Of a stretch of 21,658 nt of DNA, positions 10,458-18,038 are shown piece after piece. Below the pieces are notes generated by a model that saw only the letters and a program-made list of their open reading frames with translations, was not told the DNA's origin and made no database searches. The DNA comes from a virus (lineage: Duplodnaviria > Heunggongvirae > Uroviricota > Caudoviricetes), in the IMG/VR virus record IMGVR_UViG_3300045988_119128, positions 1-21,658 of that record. The stretch is one strand, 5' to 3'. The position numbers and the translations under genes are program-made. Position 1 is the first letter of the stretch. Each line of letters opens with the position of its first letter.

Positions 10458-12230
10458 ATGACCATCACCACAGACACCACTCTTTTACACGACCCGCGTC
10501 GTCAGGCGGCGCTGCTGTACTGGCAGGGGTTTTCCGTGCCGCAGATTGCCGCCATGTTGCAGATGAAACGCCCGACGGTGCAGAGCTGGAAACAGCGCGA
10601 CGGCTGGGACAGCGTTGCCCCCATCAGCCGTGTCGAAATGAGTCTGGAAGCGCGGCTGACCCAGCTCATCATCAAACCGCAGAAAACCGGCGGTGACTTC
10701 AAGGAAATTGACCTGCTGGGACGCCAGATTGAACGGCTGGCGCGGGTCAACCGCTACAGTCAGACCGGCAACGAGGCAGACCTTAATCCGAACGTCGCTA
10801 ACCGCAACAAAGGCGGGCGTCGCAAACCGAAAAAGAATTTTTTCAGTGACGAGGCCATCGAAAAGCTGGAGCAGATTTTCTTTGAGCAGTCTTTCGACTA
10901 TCAGTTGCACTGGTATCGCGCCGGGCTTGAGCACCGCATCCGCGATATCCTGAAATCCCGCCAGATTGGCGCGACGTTTTATTTTTCCCGCGAGGCGCTG
11001 CTGCGCGCCCTGAAAACCGGTCATAACCAGATTTTTCTGTCGGCCAGTAAAACGCAGGCGTATGTGTTCCGCGAATACATCATCGCCTTTGCCCGGCTGG
11101 TTGACGTTGACCTGACCGGTGACCCGATTGTCCTGGGCAATAACGGCGCAAAACTGATTTTTCTCGGCACCAACTCCAACACCGCGCAGAGCCATAACGG
11201 CGACCTGTACGTCGATGAGATTTTCTGGATCCCGAATTTTCAGGTACTGCGTAAGGTGGCATCAGGTATGGCCTCACAGAGTCACCTGCGCTCGACCTAT
11301 TTCTCCACCCCGTCCACGCTGGCGCACGACGCCTATCCGTTCTGGTCGGGTGAACTGTTCAACCGGGGACGCGCCAGCGCCGCCGAACGCGTGGAAATCG
11401 ACGTCAGTCATAACGCCCTTGCCGGTGGGCTTCTCTGTGCGGACGGCCAGTGGCGGCAGATTGTCACCATTGAGGACGCCCTGAAAGGTGGCTGCACGCT
11501 GTTCGACATTGAGCAGCTTAAACGCGAAAACAGCGCCGACGATTTTAAAAACCTGTTCATGTGTGAATTTGTTGACGACAAGGCGTCGGTATTCCCGTTC
11601 GAGGAGCTGCAACGCTGCATGGTCGACACGCTGGAAGAATGGGAAGACTATGCGCCGTTTGCCGCGAATCCGTTCGGCTCCCGCCCGGTCTGGATTGGTT
11701 ACGACCCGTCACACCGTGGCGACAGTGCCGGATGCGTGGTGCTGGCACCGCCGGTGGTGGCCGGTGGCAAATTCAGAATACTTGAGCGTCACCAGTGGAA
11801 AGGCATGGACTTTGCCACCCAGGCTGAATCCATCCGCAAACTCACCGAAAAATACAACGTCGAATACATCGGTATTGATGCCACCGGCCTCGGTGTCGGC
11901 GTGTTCCAGCTCGTGCGCTCGTTCTATCCCGCCGCGCGCGACATCCGCTACACGCCGGAAATGAAAACCGCAATGGTGCTCAAGGCAAAAGACGTCATCC
12001 GCCGTGGCTGTCTGGAATACGACGTCAGCGCCACCGACATCACCAGCTCGTTTATGGCTATCCGCAAGACCATGACCAGCAGCGGACGCAGTGCCACCTA
12101 TGAAGCTAGCCGCAGCGAGGAAGCCAGCCACGCCGACCTCGCCTGGGCGACCATGCACGCCCTGTTAAATGAGCCACTCACCGCCGGTATCAGCACCCCG
12201 CTGACATCCACCATTCTGGAGTTTTACTGA
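10458..12230 (+). CDS. P: Terminase large (ATPase) subunit gpP
   Basis: ATG at 10458 with GAGG Shine-Dalgarno gives 590 aa starting MTITTDTTLLHDPRRQAALLYWQG, matching P2 gpP length and N-terminus. Confidence 0.93.
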   Translation: MTITTDTTLLHDPRRQAALLYWQGFSVPQIAAMLQMKRPTVQSWKQRDGWDSVAPISRVEMSLEARLTQLIIKPQKTGGDFKEIDLLGRQIERLARVNRYSQTGNEADLNPNVANRNKGGRRKPKKNFFSDEAIEKLEQIFFEQSFDYQLHWYRAGLEHRIRDILKSRQIGATFYFSREALLRALKTGHNQIFLSASKTQAYVFREYIIAFARLVDVDLTGDPIVLGNNGAKLIFLGTNSNTAQSHNGDLYVDEIFWIPNFQVLRKVASGMASQSHLRSTYFSTPSTLAHDAYPFWSGELFNRGRASAAERVEIDVSHNALAGGLLCADGQWRQIVTIEDALKGGCTLFDIEQLKRENSADDFKNLFMCEFVDDKASVFPFEELQRCMVDTLEEWEDYAPFAANPFGSRPVWIGYDPSHRGDSAGCVVLAPPVVAGGKFRILERHQWKGMDFATQAESIRKLTEKYNVEYIGIDATGLGVGVFQLVRSFYPAARDIRYTPEMKTAMVLKAKDVIRRGCLEYDVSATDITSSFMAIRKTMTSSGRSATYEASRSEEASHADLAWATMHALLNEPLTAGISTPLTSTILEFY

Positions 12231-13264
12231 TGAGCAAGAAAAAAGGGAAAACACCGCAACCTGCGGCAAAAAAAATGACCGCCAGCGCCCCGAAAATGGC
12301 GGCATTCACCTTTGGTGAGCCGGTGCCGGTACTCGACCGCCGTGATATTCTGGATTACGTCGAGTGCATCAGTAACGGCAGATGGTATGAGCCACCGGTC
12401 AGCTTTACCGGTCTGGCAAAAAGCCTGCGTGCTGCCGTGCATCACAGCTCACCGATTTACGTCAAACGTAATATTCTGGCCTCAACGTTTATCCCGCACC
12501 CGTGGCTTTCCCAGCAGGATTTCAGCCGCTTTGTGCTGGATTTTCTGGTGTTCGGTAATGCGTTTCTGGAAAAGCGTTACAGCACTACCGGTAAGGTCAT
12601 CAGACTGGAAACCTCACCGGCAAAATATACCCGCCGTGGGGTGGAGGAGGATGTTTACTGGTGGGTGCCGTCCTTCAACGAGCCGACACCTTTCACGCCC
12701 GGCTCCGTGTTTCACCTGCTGGAGCCGGATATTAATCAGGAGCTGTACGGCCTGCCGGAATATCTCAGCGCCCTTAACTCTGCCTGGCTGAATGAGTCGG
12801 CCACGCTGTTCCGCCGCAAGTATTACGAAAACGGCGCACATGCCGGATACATCATGTACGTCACTGATGCCGTGCAGGATCGCAACGATATCGAAATGCT
12901 TCGCGAAAACATGGTGAAGTCGAAAGGCCGCAACAACTTTAAAAACCTGTTTCTCTATGCCCCACAGGGAAAAGCCGACGGCATTAAAATTATCCCGCTC
13001 AGTGAAGTGGCGACGAAGGACGATTTTTTTAATATCAAAAAAGCCAGTGCCGCAGACCTGCTGGACGCGCACCGCATCCCCTTTCAGTTGATGGGCGGCA
13101 AGCCGGAGAACGTCGGGTCGCTGGGTGATATTGAGAAAGTGGCAAAGGTCTTTGTCCGCAATGAGCTTATCCCGTTACAGGACAGGATCCGTGAGATAAA
13201 CGGCTGGCTCGGTCAGGAGGTCATCCGCTTTAAAAACTACTCACTGGACACTGACAACGGCTGA
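12230..13264 (+). CDS. Q: Portal protein gpQ
   Basis: 344 aa ORF, same length as P2 gpQ; start overlaps the P stop; followed by terminator and cos. Confidence 0.93.
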   Translation: MSKKKGKTPQPAAKKMTASAPKMAAFTFGEPVPVLDRRDILDYVECISNGRWYEPPVSFTGLAKSLRAAVHHSSPIYVKRNILASTFIPHPWLSQQDFSRFVLDFLVFGNAFLEKRYSTTGKVIRLETSPAKYTRRGVEEDVYWWVPSFNEPTPFTPGSVFHLLEPDINQELYGLPEYLSALNSAWLNESATLFRRKYYENGAHAGYIMYVTDAVQDRNDIEMLRENMVKSKGRNNFKNLFLYAPQGKADGIKIIPLSEVATKDDFFNIKKASAADLLDAHRIPFQLMGGKPENVGSLGDIEKVAKVFVRNELIPLQDRIREINGWLGQEVIRFKNYSLDTDNG

Positions 13265-13291: not shown

Positions 13292-13432
13292 ACACCCCGT
13301 CATCACGCCCTCACACGCTCACCACCGCACAAAACACCCCGCAGACACACCAACGCCCCGGCGCACAATCTAAACGCCATCACGACGCGCTGAGACGCTA
13401 AAAAATAAAATCAGCACCACCGCCAGCGCGCA

Positions 13433-13451
13433 GTGCTTTCCCCGCCTCGCC
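13433..13451. other. cos cohesive-end site (packaging/termination site)
   Basis: GTGCTTTCCCCGCCTCGCC is the reverse complement of the 19-nt P2 cohesive end GGCGAGGCGGGGAAAGCAC as I recall it; the adjacent bases also resemble the start of the P2 genome. Lies about 170 bp beyond the portal gene, as in P2. Confidence 0.75.
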
Positions 13452-13667
13452 CGCCCGCTTCGTGGGGCGATTTTAATGCGGTTGCATGACAAATAGAAAT
13501 GCATGCTAGCCTTTACATAAGGACTACTTAGCAACACTTATATCCTCATGCAAATTCATGCAGGTTCTACATGTAATACTTTGTCTAGACAATATAAAAC
13601 TTGCACATGTTACAAAAGAAGCCTCTAAAAAAAGCAATGAGGATTCAGCCTATCAAATAACAAAATA

Positions 13668-14699
13668 TCACAAGAACTCAATTACAAATTCATTCTCTTG
13701 ATACTTACGTCCTAACATAACTTCATGTGCCGTTTCATAATTTGGCTTAACTTTTAAAGATGCATTATTATGTTTCAACAAAGTTTTAGCCCTGTACATT
13801 CCTATTCCGCTTCCCGCACGATTACTCTTTTTAGCCATAACACCAGAGTACCCCTCAATAAAGATCTTATCGATCTCATCAGGATTAATTACAAGGCTAA
13901 CCATCTTAAATGAAATAGATAATTTTTTTGTCTCTGTGTTTTTATCGAAACAAATCACCAACCTCGAATCAGGCTTAATATATTTAACAGAGTTTTCAAT
14001 TAAATGATACACAGCAACCTGAAAAGTCTCATAATCAATATATACCGTATCATTAGATTCAGCCACTTCAACACGAATTCCCTTATCCGTAAACTCAGGG
14101 AAAAAGACATACACTATATTCATTAAAACTCGATGAATACTATGATTTCTCAATGCTATTTTTGGATGCTCACTCAATAAAGCATTATAAACATCTATCT
14201 CAGCCTTCATCTTGAGTGTATTTTTTGCAATATTAACTAATGACAATCCTGCATCATATGGGTCTTCAGCCACCTGTTCTTTTATTCTATTTTTCCAACC
14301 CGCTCGCTTATCCTGCATAACTTCTTGAGGGATAATAGAGTAAACCTCTTGGATAATATGACCATTGAGAGTAACCAAGTTATGAATCAATCGATTAACA
14401 TGTTGCTTTGCCTCTTCCTTAGCCTTACGGTGAGCTTCTTGCACGGAAGGAATACCGTCAAGCAACATCTCAGCTTTAGCTCGTGCAACTTTCGAACTCT
14501 TAAGCATTGCATCATTTGCTGATATTAATGTTACAACTCCAAATTGATTGGATACTCTTACAGCTCTATAGGCAACTTTATTATATGAGAACTTAACTGA
14601 CTCTGCCTTCAGAGAGTTGAAGTGCTCTAAAAGCTCCCTCTCAATATTATTGACTAACAAACAACCATCTGTCGTTTCCAACTTATAATAAAAAGACAT
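13668..14699 (-). CDS. Histidine-kinase-like ATPase (GHKL family), soluble; cargo gene 2 of island
   Basis: 343 aa AT-rich ORF with ATG at 14699-14697, 12 nt after the upstream gene stop. Motifs by eye: candidate H-box LIHNLVTLNGH, N-box-like VYHLIENSVKY, G2-like GSGIGMY; no clean DxGxG G1 box. No TM segment. Confidence 0.65.
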   Translation of the reverse strand: MSFYYKLETTDGCLLVNNIERELLEHFNSLKAESVKFSYNKVAYRAVRVSNQFGVVTLISANDAMLKSSKVARAKAEMLLDGIPSVQEAHRKAKEEAKQHVNRLIHNLVTLNGHIIQEVYSIIPQEVMQDKRAGWKNRIKEQVAEDPYDAGLSLVNIAKNTLKMKAEIDVYNALLSEHPKIALRNHSIHRVLMNIVYVFFPEFTDKGIRVEVAESNDTVYIDYETFQVAVYHLIENSVKYIKPDSRLVICFDKNTETKKLSISFKMVSLVINPDEIDKIFIEGYSGVMAKKSNRAGSGIGMYRAKTLLKHNNASLKVKPNYETAHEVMLGRKYQENEFVIEFL

Positions 14700-14711
14700 T
14701 TTAAAGCACCA

Positions 14712-15329
14712 TCAAGCAAAACTTTCTACAATTGTCTGGAACTGATAAGGATCTGCATCCTTTGGTAAAAAATCGTCTACCTCTCGAAGAGCTTTATGGA
14801 ATCTATCACCTGTTTGCTCTGCGGAGTAGATAATGATTTTCTTTTCTGGATATTTTGTTTTCAAAGCGAGAGCCAAGCCCAACCCTTCTTCGTTAGGTGT
14901 AATTTCAAGCCCAACCCCTTGTATATCAACAAAGATTATCTTAGCTTCCCTTATTTCGACTTGATCAATACTATCTGCATCCTTAATTAGCTTCGTATGC
15001 ACCCAACCGGCCTTTTGTAAAATCTTAACTACTTTAAATCTCACTTCATCATCAATAAAAAGTATTTTTGTAGTGTTTTTTTTATAATCCAGATCTTTTT
15101 TATCATCCACCATGGCATCATCCTTCTTAGAAGAGTCTAAGTTACCATTATAGATGTTCAAATTGACATTTTGTTCATTTGTAATCGGTTTGGAGTCCTG
15201 AACAACAGCCTGTGTTTGGCCTGAAAAGAACTTTTTCCACACGACACTCCCAAGCCACCCAACAATAGTTACACCAACACCACCAAAAGCCCAGTTGATT
15301 AAAGGATGAGAAGACGGGTCGAAATCCAT
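14712..15329 (-). CDS. Membrane-anchored receiver-domain (REC) protein without DNA-binding output; cargo gene 1 of island
   Basis: ATG at 15329-15327 with GAGG Shine-Dalgarno 6 nt upstream gives 205 aa (MDFDPSS...); the ORF-track start at 15386 is a TTG. One N-terminal TM helix (INWAFGGVGVTIVGWLGSVVW), a charged linker, then a CheY-like receiver: KILFIDDE, IIFVDIQG (candidate phosphoacceptor Asp), IIIYSA, LPKD. Confidence 0.7.
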   Translation of the reverse strand: MDFDPSSHPLINWAFGGVGVTIVGWLGSVVWKKFFSGQTQAVVQDSKPITNEQNVNLNIYNGNLDSSKKDDAMVDDKKDLDYKKNTTKILFIDDEVRFKVVKILQKAGWVHTKLIKDADSIDQVEIREAKIIFVDIQGVGLEITPNEEGLGLALALKTKYPEKKIIIYSAEQTGDRFHKALREVDDFLPKDADPYQFQTIVESFA

Positions 15330-15357
15330 GATAACCTCAATAAAATAAGAAAATTCT

Positions 15358-15386
15358 ACTATAAACAAAATTCTTAATTCGATCAA
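15358..15386 (-). promoter_or_regulatory. Candidate sigma70 promoter for the island operon
   Basis: On the minus strand: -35 TTGATC (15386-15381), 17-bp spacer, -10 TATAGT (15363-15358), about 30 nt upstream of the REC-gene ATG, in the AT-rich gap after the A stop. Confidence 0.35.
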
Positions 15387-15496
15387 TAGCTTAAAAAATC
15401 GACACCCGATGTGGTTGGTAGGCTATATGCTGTAGAAGTAGACAATTTCGTTCATCAGTTACTAAAAAACCTCAAACGATAGTAGTTAAGCCCCAA

Positions 15497-17773
15497 TTAA
15501 TAAAATGTAGTGAATCCACGAAACTCATTTTCAGATGAGTACACAGCTTTATAATTACCATATGAAATCGTGGCCCCGCGCGCCAGCGCCTCAAGCTCCC
15601 ATCGCTGCGGCCTGATACCGTTCTGAGCAAGGTCAACGCGGATACGAGTAATTTGCAATCGTTCCGACCGGGTCAGTCTGGCCGACGGTGCTATTTCATG
15701 TGGTTTTAACGGGCTTCCGTTTCTTTGCTGACGACTTGGCGTTCTCAGCCCGTGTTTTAATGCGCCCCTGAGCGTCCTCACGACCTCCGGGTCATTCCAT
15801 TCGATAACACCGTCATCAACCAGATTTAGCACTGCTGCGGCGTGCTCAGAAGGTGTGGGAGCCAGTAACGAAGGATCACCACCGGTGAGCTTTCCACAGT
15901 TATTGACAGGACTCCGAGGCGCGGCGATGCCGCTTTTTAAAGTCAAAGGCTCCACGACCGGAACTTTCGGCACAATGCGCCAGTCCGTCGTTCTGGTGAT
16001 ATGAATATGACGCGCGCCGAGATGCGGCGCGTAAATGCCGACCACTCTCTCGACTTCTTCCTCGTACTCGTTAACTTCATCCGACGGGCTACGGGCGACT
16101 CTGACAGTCTGGCAATCGCGCGGAACATTTGCCCCACCCTGCGCACTGATATACAACGCAAAATCGCCACTGTCTGCGGCAGCGCGTGCAGCCTCGACGC
16201 GTTCGTCAAACTCATCAGCAATGCTGACGCCGCGAGGCAATTTGCGTAGTTCACGGTAAGCCCCCATTGTCGGCAGACCAACCGTTTTAAATTGCGGGAT
16301 GCGCCACGTTGACGCCCATGCAGTAACAGCCGCGGCAGTATCTTTCAGCGGTCTGCCGGTATCGTTATCGAGCTGCCCATCCAGTGCATAGCCGTCGATA
16401 TTTTTTGAGATGTATTTCGCGATATACCCCGCAGCACCGCCCCGGTTAAGATGTTTTGCCTGAAAACGGTTTCGCGCGGCTCCTCTTTCGTCGCCATCCT
16501 CTTTGAGCGCATAGCGACGCATGATTTCGATAATCTGGTTACGCTGGCGTGGATTACAAAAAAGCATCATATGCCAGTGCGGCGTTCCGTCGTGGTGTGG
16601 CTCGACGACACGCAAACCGTAGGCCTGTAAATCATTATCCTTGAATGCCGTGCGCATCAGGCTCCAGATACGGCAGAGATAACGCTGCGCATCCTTTGGA
16701 TTAAATGCCTTATCGTTCCAGCCGTGATTAAGCTGAACGGTTTTACTTTCGCCTTTTCCGACCTGACGTGTCGGGTGATACTTTGACGGTGCGGTCAGCG
16801 TGATAAACATCCCCACATCACCCTCTGCAGCGGCGTAACGCTCAATACCGGCAATGGTGTTCATCAGCTCCATCCGGCGAATTTCAGGATTAGAAATACT
16901 GCCCATCACCTTACTGATAAGGTCGATGCGCTCGCCGGTTTCCTTATTTTCAAGGTCACACGATTTAAGAAATTCCAGATTTGCCTGGCGGCGTGCACGC
17001 ACATCACGAATGGCATGTTTACTGGCATAAGGAGAACGGTCTTTATTGACCTCCCCGACAGCAATCAGTAACGCCTCATGCCAGCGCATACGCTGGCCTT
17101 TAAGCTGATGAGTCCACCACTCATCGTTAAACAGACGGGCAATGGCAGAATATGCCTGCCTCGTGGTCATCTGCCCTTTACGGTATTTTTTCCAGTAGAG
17201 AGGGGAAATATTGAAAGCTCGTGCAGCGCCAGCAACATGACCATACAGGTGAGCCTGCGCCTCATCCGTAAACAGCGATTCTTTCTCGCCATGCGCATCC
17301 ACCCAGGCATCGCAGAGTTCCTCATACATCATGAAAAGCTGTGATGAGATACGGGCGGCAAACTTTTTCAGCTCCTTGTCATTCATTCCAGGCAAACGCG
17401 CATAATGGTCACGCTCTGCCAGAAACAGCAACGACGCGTCGGTGTTCATTTCATGGCGCTGATTCACACGCTCAATGCGCGGCCATAAACGACGCTGAAA
17501 AGTGGATGTGAGGAAATAAAACCCGTGCACCGGGCTTTTATTGCGCCGGATGTAGTCATAGCGTGAAGTAAACAGCGAGCGCAAAAAATAAGGCAGGCGG
17601 TTAATCGTGGATAAAACACCTTGCACCTGACGCATCTCGTCACGTGTAAGAGGTCTTTCGCGCCCGACAGCCTCGCGTGGCGCGTTCCATGCATAAGCAC
17701 CGGTAAACGTCTTACCGGTGCCTGCGGCAAATGCTGACGGAGGGACAAAACGCCCGGAGGCTTTAACGGCCAT
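15497..17773 (-). CDS. A: Replication initiation endonuclease gpA (rolling-circle Rep)
   Basis: ATG at 17773-17771 gives a protein starting MAVKASGRFVPPSAFAAGTG, the P2 gpA N-terminus; the ORF-track start at 17815 is a TTG. Contains HWH (PHWHMMLF) and tyrosine (AGYIAKYISK) motifs typical of rolling-circle initiators. The last ~23 codons are AT-rich and appear to differ from P2. Confidence 0.9.
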   Translation of the reverse strand: MAVKASGRFVPPSAFAAGTGKTFTGAYAWNAPREAVGRERPLTRDEMRQVQGVLSTINRLPYFLRSLFTSRYDYIRRNKSPVHGFYFLTSTFQRRLWPRIERVNQRHEMNTDASLLFLAERDHYARLPGMNDKELKKFAARISSQLFMMYEELCDAWVDAHGEKESLFTDEAQAHLYGHVAGAARAFNISPLYWKKYRKGQMTTRQAYSAIARLFNDEWWTHQLKGQRMRWHEALLIAVGEVNKDRSPYASKHAIRDVRARRQANLEFLKSCDLENKETGERIDLISKVMGSISNPEIRRMELMNTIAGIERYAAAEGDVGMFITLTAPSKYHPTRQVGKGESKTVQLNHGWNDKAFNPKDAQRYLCRIWSLMRTAFKDNDLQAYGLRVVEPHHDGTPHWHMMLFCNPRQRNQIIEIMRRYALKEDGDERGAARNRFQAKHLNRGGAAGYIAKYISKNIDGYALDGQLDNDTGRPLKDTAAAVTAWASTWRIPQFKTVGLPTMGAYRELRKLPRGVSIADEFDERVEAARAAADSGDFALYISAQGGANVPRDCQTVRVARSPSDEVNEYEEEVERVVGIYAPHLGARHIHITRTTDWRIVPKVPVVEPLTLKSGIAAPRSPVNNCGKLTGGDPSLLAPTPSEHAAAVLNLVDDGVIEWNDPEVVRTLRGALKHGLRTPSRQQRNGSPLKPHEIAPSARLTRSERLQITRIRVDLAQNGIRPQRWELEALARGATISYGNYKAVYSSENEFRGFTTFY

Positions 17774-18038
17774 ATGAGCCAAAAGCCTCTGAACAACGCC
17801 TGCTGAGTTGCTCAACCTGCACGTTTAAATCGGCAAAAGATTTTGCGCTTCCGGTCAGAATATCGTGATGCATCAGGCCGGAAACGAGCTGGCTTAATTT
17901 CGGGTAATAACCAACCACCGCCAGCCATTCCTGACCGGCGTTTTTACCGCTTTCCGCTCTCTTTTTCTCGTGGAGAATAAACTGAAAGCTGTCACTGGTA
18001 ACGACATAACGTTCGCCAATTTCAATACGAATACTCAT
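17763..18038 (-). CDS. Small early-operon protein (P2 orf83 position)
   Basis: 91 aa ORF directly upstream of A, overlapping its start; position matches P2 orf83. Confidence 0.7.
   Translation of the reverse strand: MSIRIEIGERYVVTSDSFQFILHEKKRAESGKNAGQEWLAVVGYYPKLSQLVSGLMHHDILTGSAKSFADLNVQVEQLSRRCSEAFGSYGR

Follow-up and report, generated by a model that had tools for sequence, protein, structure and literature searches.

Introduction

In phages related to P2, the gpA-gpQ locus, between the replication gene A and the portal gene Q, is highly variable and constitutes a hotspot of anti-phage systems (Rousset et al. 2022, PMC9122126, citing Odegrip 2006; PMC13586616, NAR 2026). In PMC9122126 and PMC13586616, the hotspot is limited to the genes between gpA and gpQ. 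In this study, the A-side edge of such a locus was analysed in a 21,658-nt stretch of DNA (IMG/VR record IMGVR_UViG_3300045988_119128), which is hereafter called the window and is a P2-like Escherichia coli prophage. Segment 13491-15571 of the window represents an allele of this A-Q (old/tin) locus. The hotspot is already known; what is new here is an allele with the candidate system PDC-M43 and a very diverged A tail, in which the A-side edge of the hotspot lies inside the replication gene.

Mosaic joints inside genes are a feature of the lambdoid type of modular exchange in temperate phages, and raised flanking diversity is found beside loci whose polymorphism is long-lived, for example the E. 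coli hsd region. Another variable locus of P2-like phages, fun(Z), is reported to have inverted-repeat flanks, and site-specific exchange has been proposed for it (Nilsson 2004, in the summary given in PMC8987985).

Results

The preliminary description of the window had placed the boundary of the AT-rich island inside the 3' end of gene A, with about the last 23 codons resembling the island, and this was borne out by composition and by DNA identity. The translation of A in the window ended in ALARGATISYGNYKAVYSSENEFRGFTTFY (the tail peptide is also written ISYGNYKAVYSSENEFRGFTTFY), and RefSeq agreed on the open reading frame (ORF), the stop codon and the tail, all as earlier described. In contrast, A of P2 ends in ATVNYDGKKFTYPVADEWPGFSTVMEWT (in a longer stretch, ALARGATVNYDGKKFTYPVADEWPGFSTVMEWT), and the supposed difference between the two C-termini was thus real. 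The AT-rich C-terminal tail, delimited by translation, composition and the identity step, consists of 24 sense codons (15500-15571, minus strand; TISYGNYKAVYSSENEFRGFTTFY) and is followed by the stop codon TAA (15497-15499, minus strand), which was read from the reverse complement and the RefSeq annotation and is located in island-type sequence. The guanine-cytosine (GC) content was 29.7% at 15497-15570, 53.7% in the rest of A, 57.3% in the preceding 300 nt and 35.4% in the island (13491-15496). The GC content at third codon positions (GC3) was 0.21 over the last 24 sense codons versus 0.54 in the A body. Moreover, the minimum over all 24-codon windows of the A body was 41.7% GC; since no such window fell below this value, the composition of the tail is outside the range seen within the gene itself and is not a chance fluctuation.

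The step in identity was found at the same position. Megablast matches in 86 P2-like phage records all ended at window positions 15558-15579, and the match of phage 11W that reached 15558 was a chance CATATGG inside a different tail. In the pairwise alignment with P2, the two sequences were near-identical as far as GGCGCGYGG.GC.AC, and little similarity was seen after it. For the wider comparison, 92 loci were used, namely the window, P2, 12 E. coli genomes and 78 IMG/VR contigs. The IMG/VR loci were chosen at 95% or higher amino acid identity over the 147 residues preceding the tail; 80 were fetched, 79 had the anchor and one was cut before the stop. In codon-anchored comparison with the 91 other loci, the median DNA identity was 95% over the 60 nt that precede the tail and 47% over its initial 60 nt, where third-position identity was 35%, which is near random. 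The alignments with P2 and other A genes, which had been proposed as a check, therefore placed the breakpoint at about 15571, and the shift began before the stop codon, not only after it. A drop this abrupt, together with saturated synonymous sites and island-like third positions, showed that the tail has a history different from that of the A body.

On the evidence of its sequence, the window tail is a strongly diverged homologue of the normal A tail and not unrelated sequence. It aligned with the family without gaps, with up to 9 of 20 residues identical and a mean of 6.3, and none of 20,000 composition-preserving shuffles matched the observed maximum or mean. Among 48 representatives, a scaffold of Y738 (48), F743 (47), Y745 (47), W751 (46) and F754 (41) was recognised, in which the window has A at 743 and F at 751. 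The window stretch GATISYGNYKAVYSSENEFRGF was compared with the family motif GA-x-[VI]-x-[YF]...[FM]-x-[YF]....[DE]-W-x-x-F; both tyrosines and G-F were kept, with the changes F743 to A and W751 to F. The conserved pattern of the window tail can be written Y..K...Y....[EW/EF].GF (Y738, K, Y745, E, an aromatic residue at 751, and G-F). Furthermore, the same motif was present near the C-terminus of A proteins that are about 40% identical (P0084, P0087, P0088, which ends in RGAEISFGNLVMSFEPMPDWAEFE, and P0093). In an AlphaFold2 model of the last 112 residues, the helices SERLQITRIRVDLAQN and RWELEALA were followed by the strands TISY, YKAVY and EFRGFT, with a local predicted local distance difference test score (pLDDT) of about 65-80, and no sequence relatives of gpA were found in PDB. 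The model suggests that Y, K, Y, E, the aromatic residue and G-F may form a small C-terminal beta element. Beyond G-F, the sequences differed between tails in an unrelated way, and the last four residues of the window tail (TTFY) had no counterpart, which indicates that illegitimate joins do happen at the extreme end.

Diverged tails at the A-Q edge are common to most cassette classes and are not peculiar to the island of the window. From I711 onward, the 79 anchored IMG/VR loci contained 42 distinct C-terminal sequences, of which two were incomplete, and 46 distinct tails were counted once the window, P2 and the 12 E. coli loci were included. When the first 800 nt past the A stop were clustered, the 92 loci fell into 30 cassette-proximal classes, nearly each with its own tail, and the differences within a class were point variants. 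Per-codon diversity was low through the residues ending in ALAR; at third positions it rose from below 0.1 to 0.68 at G733 and stayed at 0.5-0.7 onward, and by the final residues it exceeded 0.5 per site. The departure from P2-type sequence was graded over codons 730-758, being at or before codon 737 in six classes, at 738-750 in seven, at 751-755 in nine, and later or absent in eight; the window belonged to the deepest group. The two tails most diverged in DNA from that of P2 were those of the window (identity 0.48) and of locus L096 (0.50), and tails more diverged from the P2 type were more AT-rich (rho 0.79, P=2e-7).

The linkage of tail and cassette was also seen in locus L112. Its tail and cassette differed from those of the window at 7 positions in about 2.1 kb (0.33%), and its A/early-gene region at 65 positions in 2.76 kb (2.4%). 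A near-identical module on a 2.4%-different backbone indicates that at least two backbones have received it, by a crossover located towards the 3' end of A. Together with the 30 classes, these data indicate that the tail and its stop codon are almost always inherited as one unit with the cassette. In the preliminary description, the cassette was thought to have recombined within the end of A and to have supplied a new tail and stop codon. The present data agree in that both travel with the cassette and the edge of the module is in A; however, the tail is a diverged homologue rather than a new sequence, and the event is best read as a homologous replacement of the 3' end, not as an illegitimate fusion.

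In one cassette cluster (cluster 1, L040 and others), three internal tails, DGKPFTYQVADDWPGF, YGKSFNYQVADEWPGF and DGKKFTYPVADEWPGFS, were observed with the same or near-identical ends (LLPI twice and SLPI once). These mosaic tails indicate that breakpoints fall within the tail, too.

The window was 100% identical to the chromosome of E. coli DETEC-P881 (NZ_CP116100) over the tested 2,901 nt, where the RefSeq labels were portal, terminase, 'HAMP domain-containing histidine kinase', hypothetical protein and 'replication endonuclease'. The cargo (13491-15496) is situated between A (15497-17773, minus strand) and the portal gene Q (12230-13264, plus strand), which forms the conserved flank on the opposite side of the hotspot, and is next to cos (13434-13452). 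On the cos side, where the island edge was assigned to 13491-13667 (BLAST matches covered query positions 1-90 of 13400-15570), homology with other P2-like phages resumed at about 13490, about 38 nt from the cos sequence. In the P2 annotation, orf91, tin and old occupy the same slot. The hotspot flanks were matched in 2,194 of 5,426 complete E. coli genomes, and the cargo of the window in one only; 12 E. coli relatives held other cargo in the slot, including Fic, retron-type reverse transcriptase, HEPN, Panacea with DUF2975, GNAT, EEP-nuclease and DUF3850.

The cargo is a candidate defence system, as judged from its match to PADLOC profiles. An AT-rich spacer (15330-15496; GC 0.32) separates the A stop from the first cassette gene and contained a sigma-70-like site at 15386-15358 (minus strand; 9 of 12 positions in a promoter scan for consensus match only). 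Another sigma-70-like sequence, TTTTCA-16-TATAAT (10 of 12), was noticed at 15528-15555 (plus strand), within the A tail and antisense to A; it may merely reflect AT-richness. The first gene (14712-15329, minus strand) encodes a receiver-like protein of 205 aa with an N-terminal hydrophobic stretch, as read from the sequence (PDC-M43A; PDLC04646, E=8.4e-82), and the second (13668-14699, minus strand) a histidine-kinase-like ATPase of 343 aa (PDC-M43B; PDLC04650, E=1.1e-172). Both profile matches were full length, and the two genes are adjacent and co-directional. In Pfam, Response_reg (23.7 bits, cut-off 30.2) and HATPase_c (25.9 bits, cut-off 26.4) stayed below threshold and HisKA was not detected in the cassette proteins; the combination that defines classical two-component systems, HisKA, HATPase_c and receiver above thresholds, was thus not found in the cassette. 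In three IMG/VR P2-like contigs (L015-L017), the A-to-cos slot was likewise occupied by relatives of PDC-M43 with 60-80% identity. About 150 contigs encoded the exact A protein and about 200 or more the kinase-like protein; all were from E. coli, and the arrangement was always identical.

Gene A encodes 758 aa; the longest ORF spans 15497-17815, and the shorter start agrees with P2 and with RefSeq, which has the same 758-aa 'replication endonuclease' in DETEC-P881. The conserved body (15572-17773, minus strand) is that of a rolling-circle replication initiator (Phage_GPA, PF05840; E=1.5e-123, residues 133-462) and includes GAAGYIAKYISKNIDGY, whose paired tyrosines we take to have the role of the P2 A active-site tyrosine pair. 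The ori nick, between GCGCCTCG and GAGTCCTGTCAA, is inside A at about 15903-15922, and the P2 sequence around the annotated nick (29892) matched at A nt 1845-1869. The nick sequence was 100% conserved even against L015. The surrounding region was 97-100% identical in DNA to L015 and L016, whose A genes were 69-74% identical over the last 700 nt, and was by far the most conserved stretch in the 3' third of A.

The last conserved block of A before the breakpoint (15572-15643, minus strand; IRVDLAQNGIRPQRWELEALARGA) was delimited by per-codon diversity and by the identity profile of L015 and L016, and its upstream edge was a recurrent deletion endpoint. The possibility that the 66 nt before the tail (IRVDL to ALAR) are an unusually conserved site was discarded, because their third-position diversity of 0.071 equalled the mean of the A body (0.071 over 56 unique A bodies) and ranked 417 among 714 windows.

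Several short proteins joined unrelated N-termini to the A C-terminus at one same residue. This recurrent deletion endpoint of defective P2-like prophages was at A codon 711 (window about 15643/15644, minus strand), exactly between T and ATCCGCGTTGACCTTGCTCAGAACGG, in the A context ACCCGT followed by ATCCGCGTTGACC. At least six left partners were joined there, namely the att-side flank (L018), codon 3 of a cox-like gene (L019), cox codon 33 (L104), A codon 23 (L106), A codon 42 (L117) and orf81 codon 3 (L108); in L102, the left partner of L104 was joined to A 6 nt further upstream. The codon-711 remnants retained the last 48 codons of A and the hotspot cassette. No shared microhomology and no repeat was found across the junctions, and a hairpin at the junction was rejected on a DNA folding z of -0.02 to -1.05 and a stem that is not conserved in P2. 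Truncated A remnants were rare in complete E. coli genomes, in which 1,401 of 1,402 matching records had a full-length best match. The recurrent endpoint could be due to aberrant joining by the A nuclease. It is conceivable, though very unlikely, that this nuclease has a second DNA site of action at codon 711.

In L112 (3060-3080), A carried a 282-nt deletion that joined the equivalents of window positions of about 15915 and about 15627. The left end was at the annotated ori nick, between GCGCCTCG and GAGTCC, and the right end, between GACCTTG and CTCAGAAC, was 16 nt downstream of the recurrent endpoint. The junction CCTTG/CTCAG resembled CCTCG/GAGTC at ori, and this deletion could have arisen by aberrant cleavage-joining by the A nuclease. 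Other signs of decay in relatives were an IS21-family insertion in the terminase gene of L111 and a split receiver-like gene in L113. Several copies were 100% identical in DNA, which fits clonal spread, and clonal dissemination, not phage activity, may be how the prophage lineage of the window spreads.

Discussion

The data are probably best explained by exchange of A-Q cassettes through homologous recombination, in which the A tail hitchhikes with long-lived AT-rich cassette lineages while its scaffold is under purifying selection. P2-like genomes would swap cassettes by two crossovers, one within the conserved 3' portion of A and the other near cos/Q. The last 5-25 codons of A adjoin the cassette, so they would almost always be inherited together with it, and the A tail would diverge independently in each cassette lineage. 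The tail and cassette of the window would come from a lineage long apart from the E. coli P2 backbone and more AT-rich. Such long separation would have saturated the synonymous sites and led to the GC3 of 0.21, and purifying selection would have retained Y, K, Y, E, the aromatic residue and G-F. In addition, the RWELEALARGA codons just upstream of the tail formed a local peak of DNA identity against L015 (0.80-0.83, with flanks at 0.57-0.67), which suggests that crossovers are favoured there and that this segment may be the crossover zone.

Several observations weigh against this explanation. The identity peak at RWELEALARGA was weak against L016, and tail GC was uncorrelated with cassette GC (rho 0.23, P=0.21). 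A foreign AT-rich donor is implied, and no donor lineage was identified in the searches made. The exact tail DNA (degenerate pattern for YGNYKAVYSSENEFRGF) had 0 matches in IMG/VR, the ISYGNYKAVY pattern had 0 matches in JGI metagenome contigs, and neither the kinase-like protein nor a 4-sequence profile of it had a match among 185,579 species-representative genomes. The three distant IMG/VR PDC-M43 loci bore different A tails, and the co-descent of tail and cassette is therefore untraceable beyond the E. coli lineage of the window. With regard to homology, a hidden Markov model built from the other tails scored the window tail at a modest 3.9 bits (z about 1.9 against shuffles), and the argument thus rests on the position-anchored identity test. 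Two nearly invariant residues were changed (F743 to A and W751 to F), and the window tail could be partly degenerate. The mean pLDDT of the AlphaFold2 model was only 59, that is, of low to moderate confidence, and a Foldseek search of the model against PDB gave nothing below E=1. Protein word-index searches with the tail returned just fragments bearing other tails.

It is unlikely that the tail arose by illegitimate fusion, that is, by non-homologous insertion of the cassette in the end of A with unrelated DNA encoding a new 23-residue tail and stop. Such fusion would account for the extreme C-terminal residues in several classes, which are unrelated after the residues ending in DEW or PGF (RWYIVDGRR, LEDITDIKWI, WHQFE, LLPI and SIKQ), for the final TTFY of the window and for the near-random third positions of its tail. 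However, the first 20 tail residues fit the family motif without gaps at a level that no shuffle reached, Y738, Y745 and G-F were retained with W751 replaced by F, and the motif is ancient, being shared with A proteins that are only about 40% identical. Divergence of the tail in place, without import and with selection either relaxed or diversifying (an arms race on the A C-terminus, for instance), is quite unlikely as well. The 46 distinct tails on nearly identical A bodies and the conserved scaffold with variable positions between, as for a surface under diversifying selection, would be compatible with it. Nevertheless, the identity step from 95% to 47% occurs within a few nucleotides while the backbone elsewhere is 95-100% identical, synonymous sites are saturated and GC3 is like that of the neighbouring island, and point mutation cannot yield such a pattern on such a time scale. 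Furthermore, the tails are linked to cassette classes, and the tail and cassette of the window recur on a backbone that differs by 2.4%.

Site-specific exchange of the cassette by a recombinase that acts on one defined site within the 3' end of A, integron-like or as at the inverted repeats of fun(Z), is highly improbable. It has been proposed for fun(Z) as the other variable locus of P2 (Nilsson 2004, via PMC8987985), and the recurrent deletion endpoint 72 nt upstream of the tail might be taken for such a site. The breakpoints were graded across about 30 codons, though, and no direct or inverted repeats were found that pair the island edges (about 13490 with about 15570), which together argue against a site-specific mechanism. 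In addition, the block beside the breakpoint was no more conserved than A overall, and Pfam and PADLOC profile searches revealed no recombinase gene in the cassette. A recombination site on the A-side of A-Q is not supported by the summary of Nilsson 2004 in PMC8987985, according to which the site-specific recombination takes place at fun(Z). The probability that a chimeric assembly or a mis-called stop produced an apparent AT-rich tail is negligible. Nothing was found in favour of it: the identical sequence occurs in a complete genome (NZ_CP116100), the region was 100% identical in the independent assemblies L110, L111 and L114, and the exact 758-aa protein is widespread on contigs.

Homologous replacement of the 3' end of A would have practical consequences. 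The P2 A-Q hotspot is much used for mining anti-phage systems and is usually bounded by the annotated ends of gpA and gpQ. If the exchanged unit enters A by 5-25 codons, a cassette swap also swaps the C-terminus of the initiator, and cassette boundaries for cloning or for evolutionary inference should sit inside A. The A tail would moreover be a cheap marker of cassette lineage and for breakpoint mapping, and Y..K.F.Y....EW.GF is a candidate functional element of gpA that is at present unannotated. It is very unlikely that the tail is a specificity determinant that co-varies functionally with the defence cassette. If it were, the cassette, or competing P2-like phages or satellites, might recognise the C-terminal beta element of the initiator, and each cassette would be accompanied by a matching A tail that is tolerated as 'self', by which P2-like phages would discriminate kin.

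Compared with known systems, the locus resembles the P2 A-Q hotspot in its A-to-Q slot beside cos, its AT-rich cargo, its mostly 90-99% identical backbone and its candidate anti-phage cargo, and hundreds of alternative cassettes occupy the same slot. It departs from the limits given for the hotspot in PMC9122126 and PMC13586616, where the genes between gpA and gpQ are meant, in that the variable module here extends into the A coding sequence. Term searches of the hotspot papers returned no mention of such an extension in the text they covered; Odegrip 2006 and Nilsson 2004 were outside these searches, and an earlier description is possible. The cargo is like PDC-M43, itself a predicted candidate system only, in that both window genes match the models end to end. 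Unlike classical two-component genes, it has HATPase_c and Response_reg under the gathering scores and HisKA undetected. With P2 fun(Z), the locus shares the features of an AT-rich lysogenic-conversion locus with alternative cargo; unlike fun(Z), the window island is without flanking repeats and its breakpoints are not fixed.

The locus is also like lambdoid joints and hsd flanks, in which near-identity likewise passes sharply into saturated divergence within coding sequence beside a locus of many alleles, and in which the breakpoints are graded, as expected from recombination and linkage. In contrast to these, the gene hit here is an essential rolling-circle initiator, and the diverged segment is a recognisable and apparently constrained homologue. 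These results refine the picture of how the A-Q hotspot works and do not change it.

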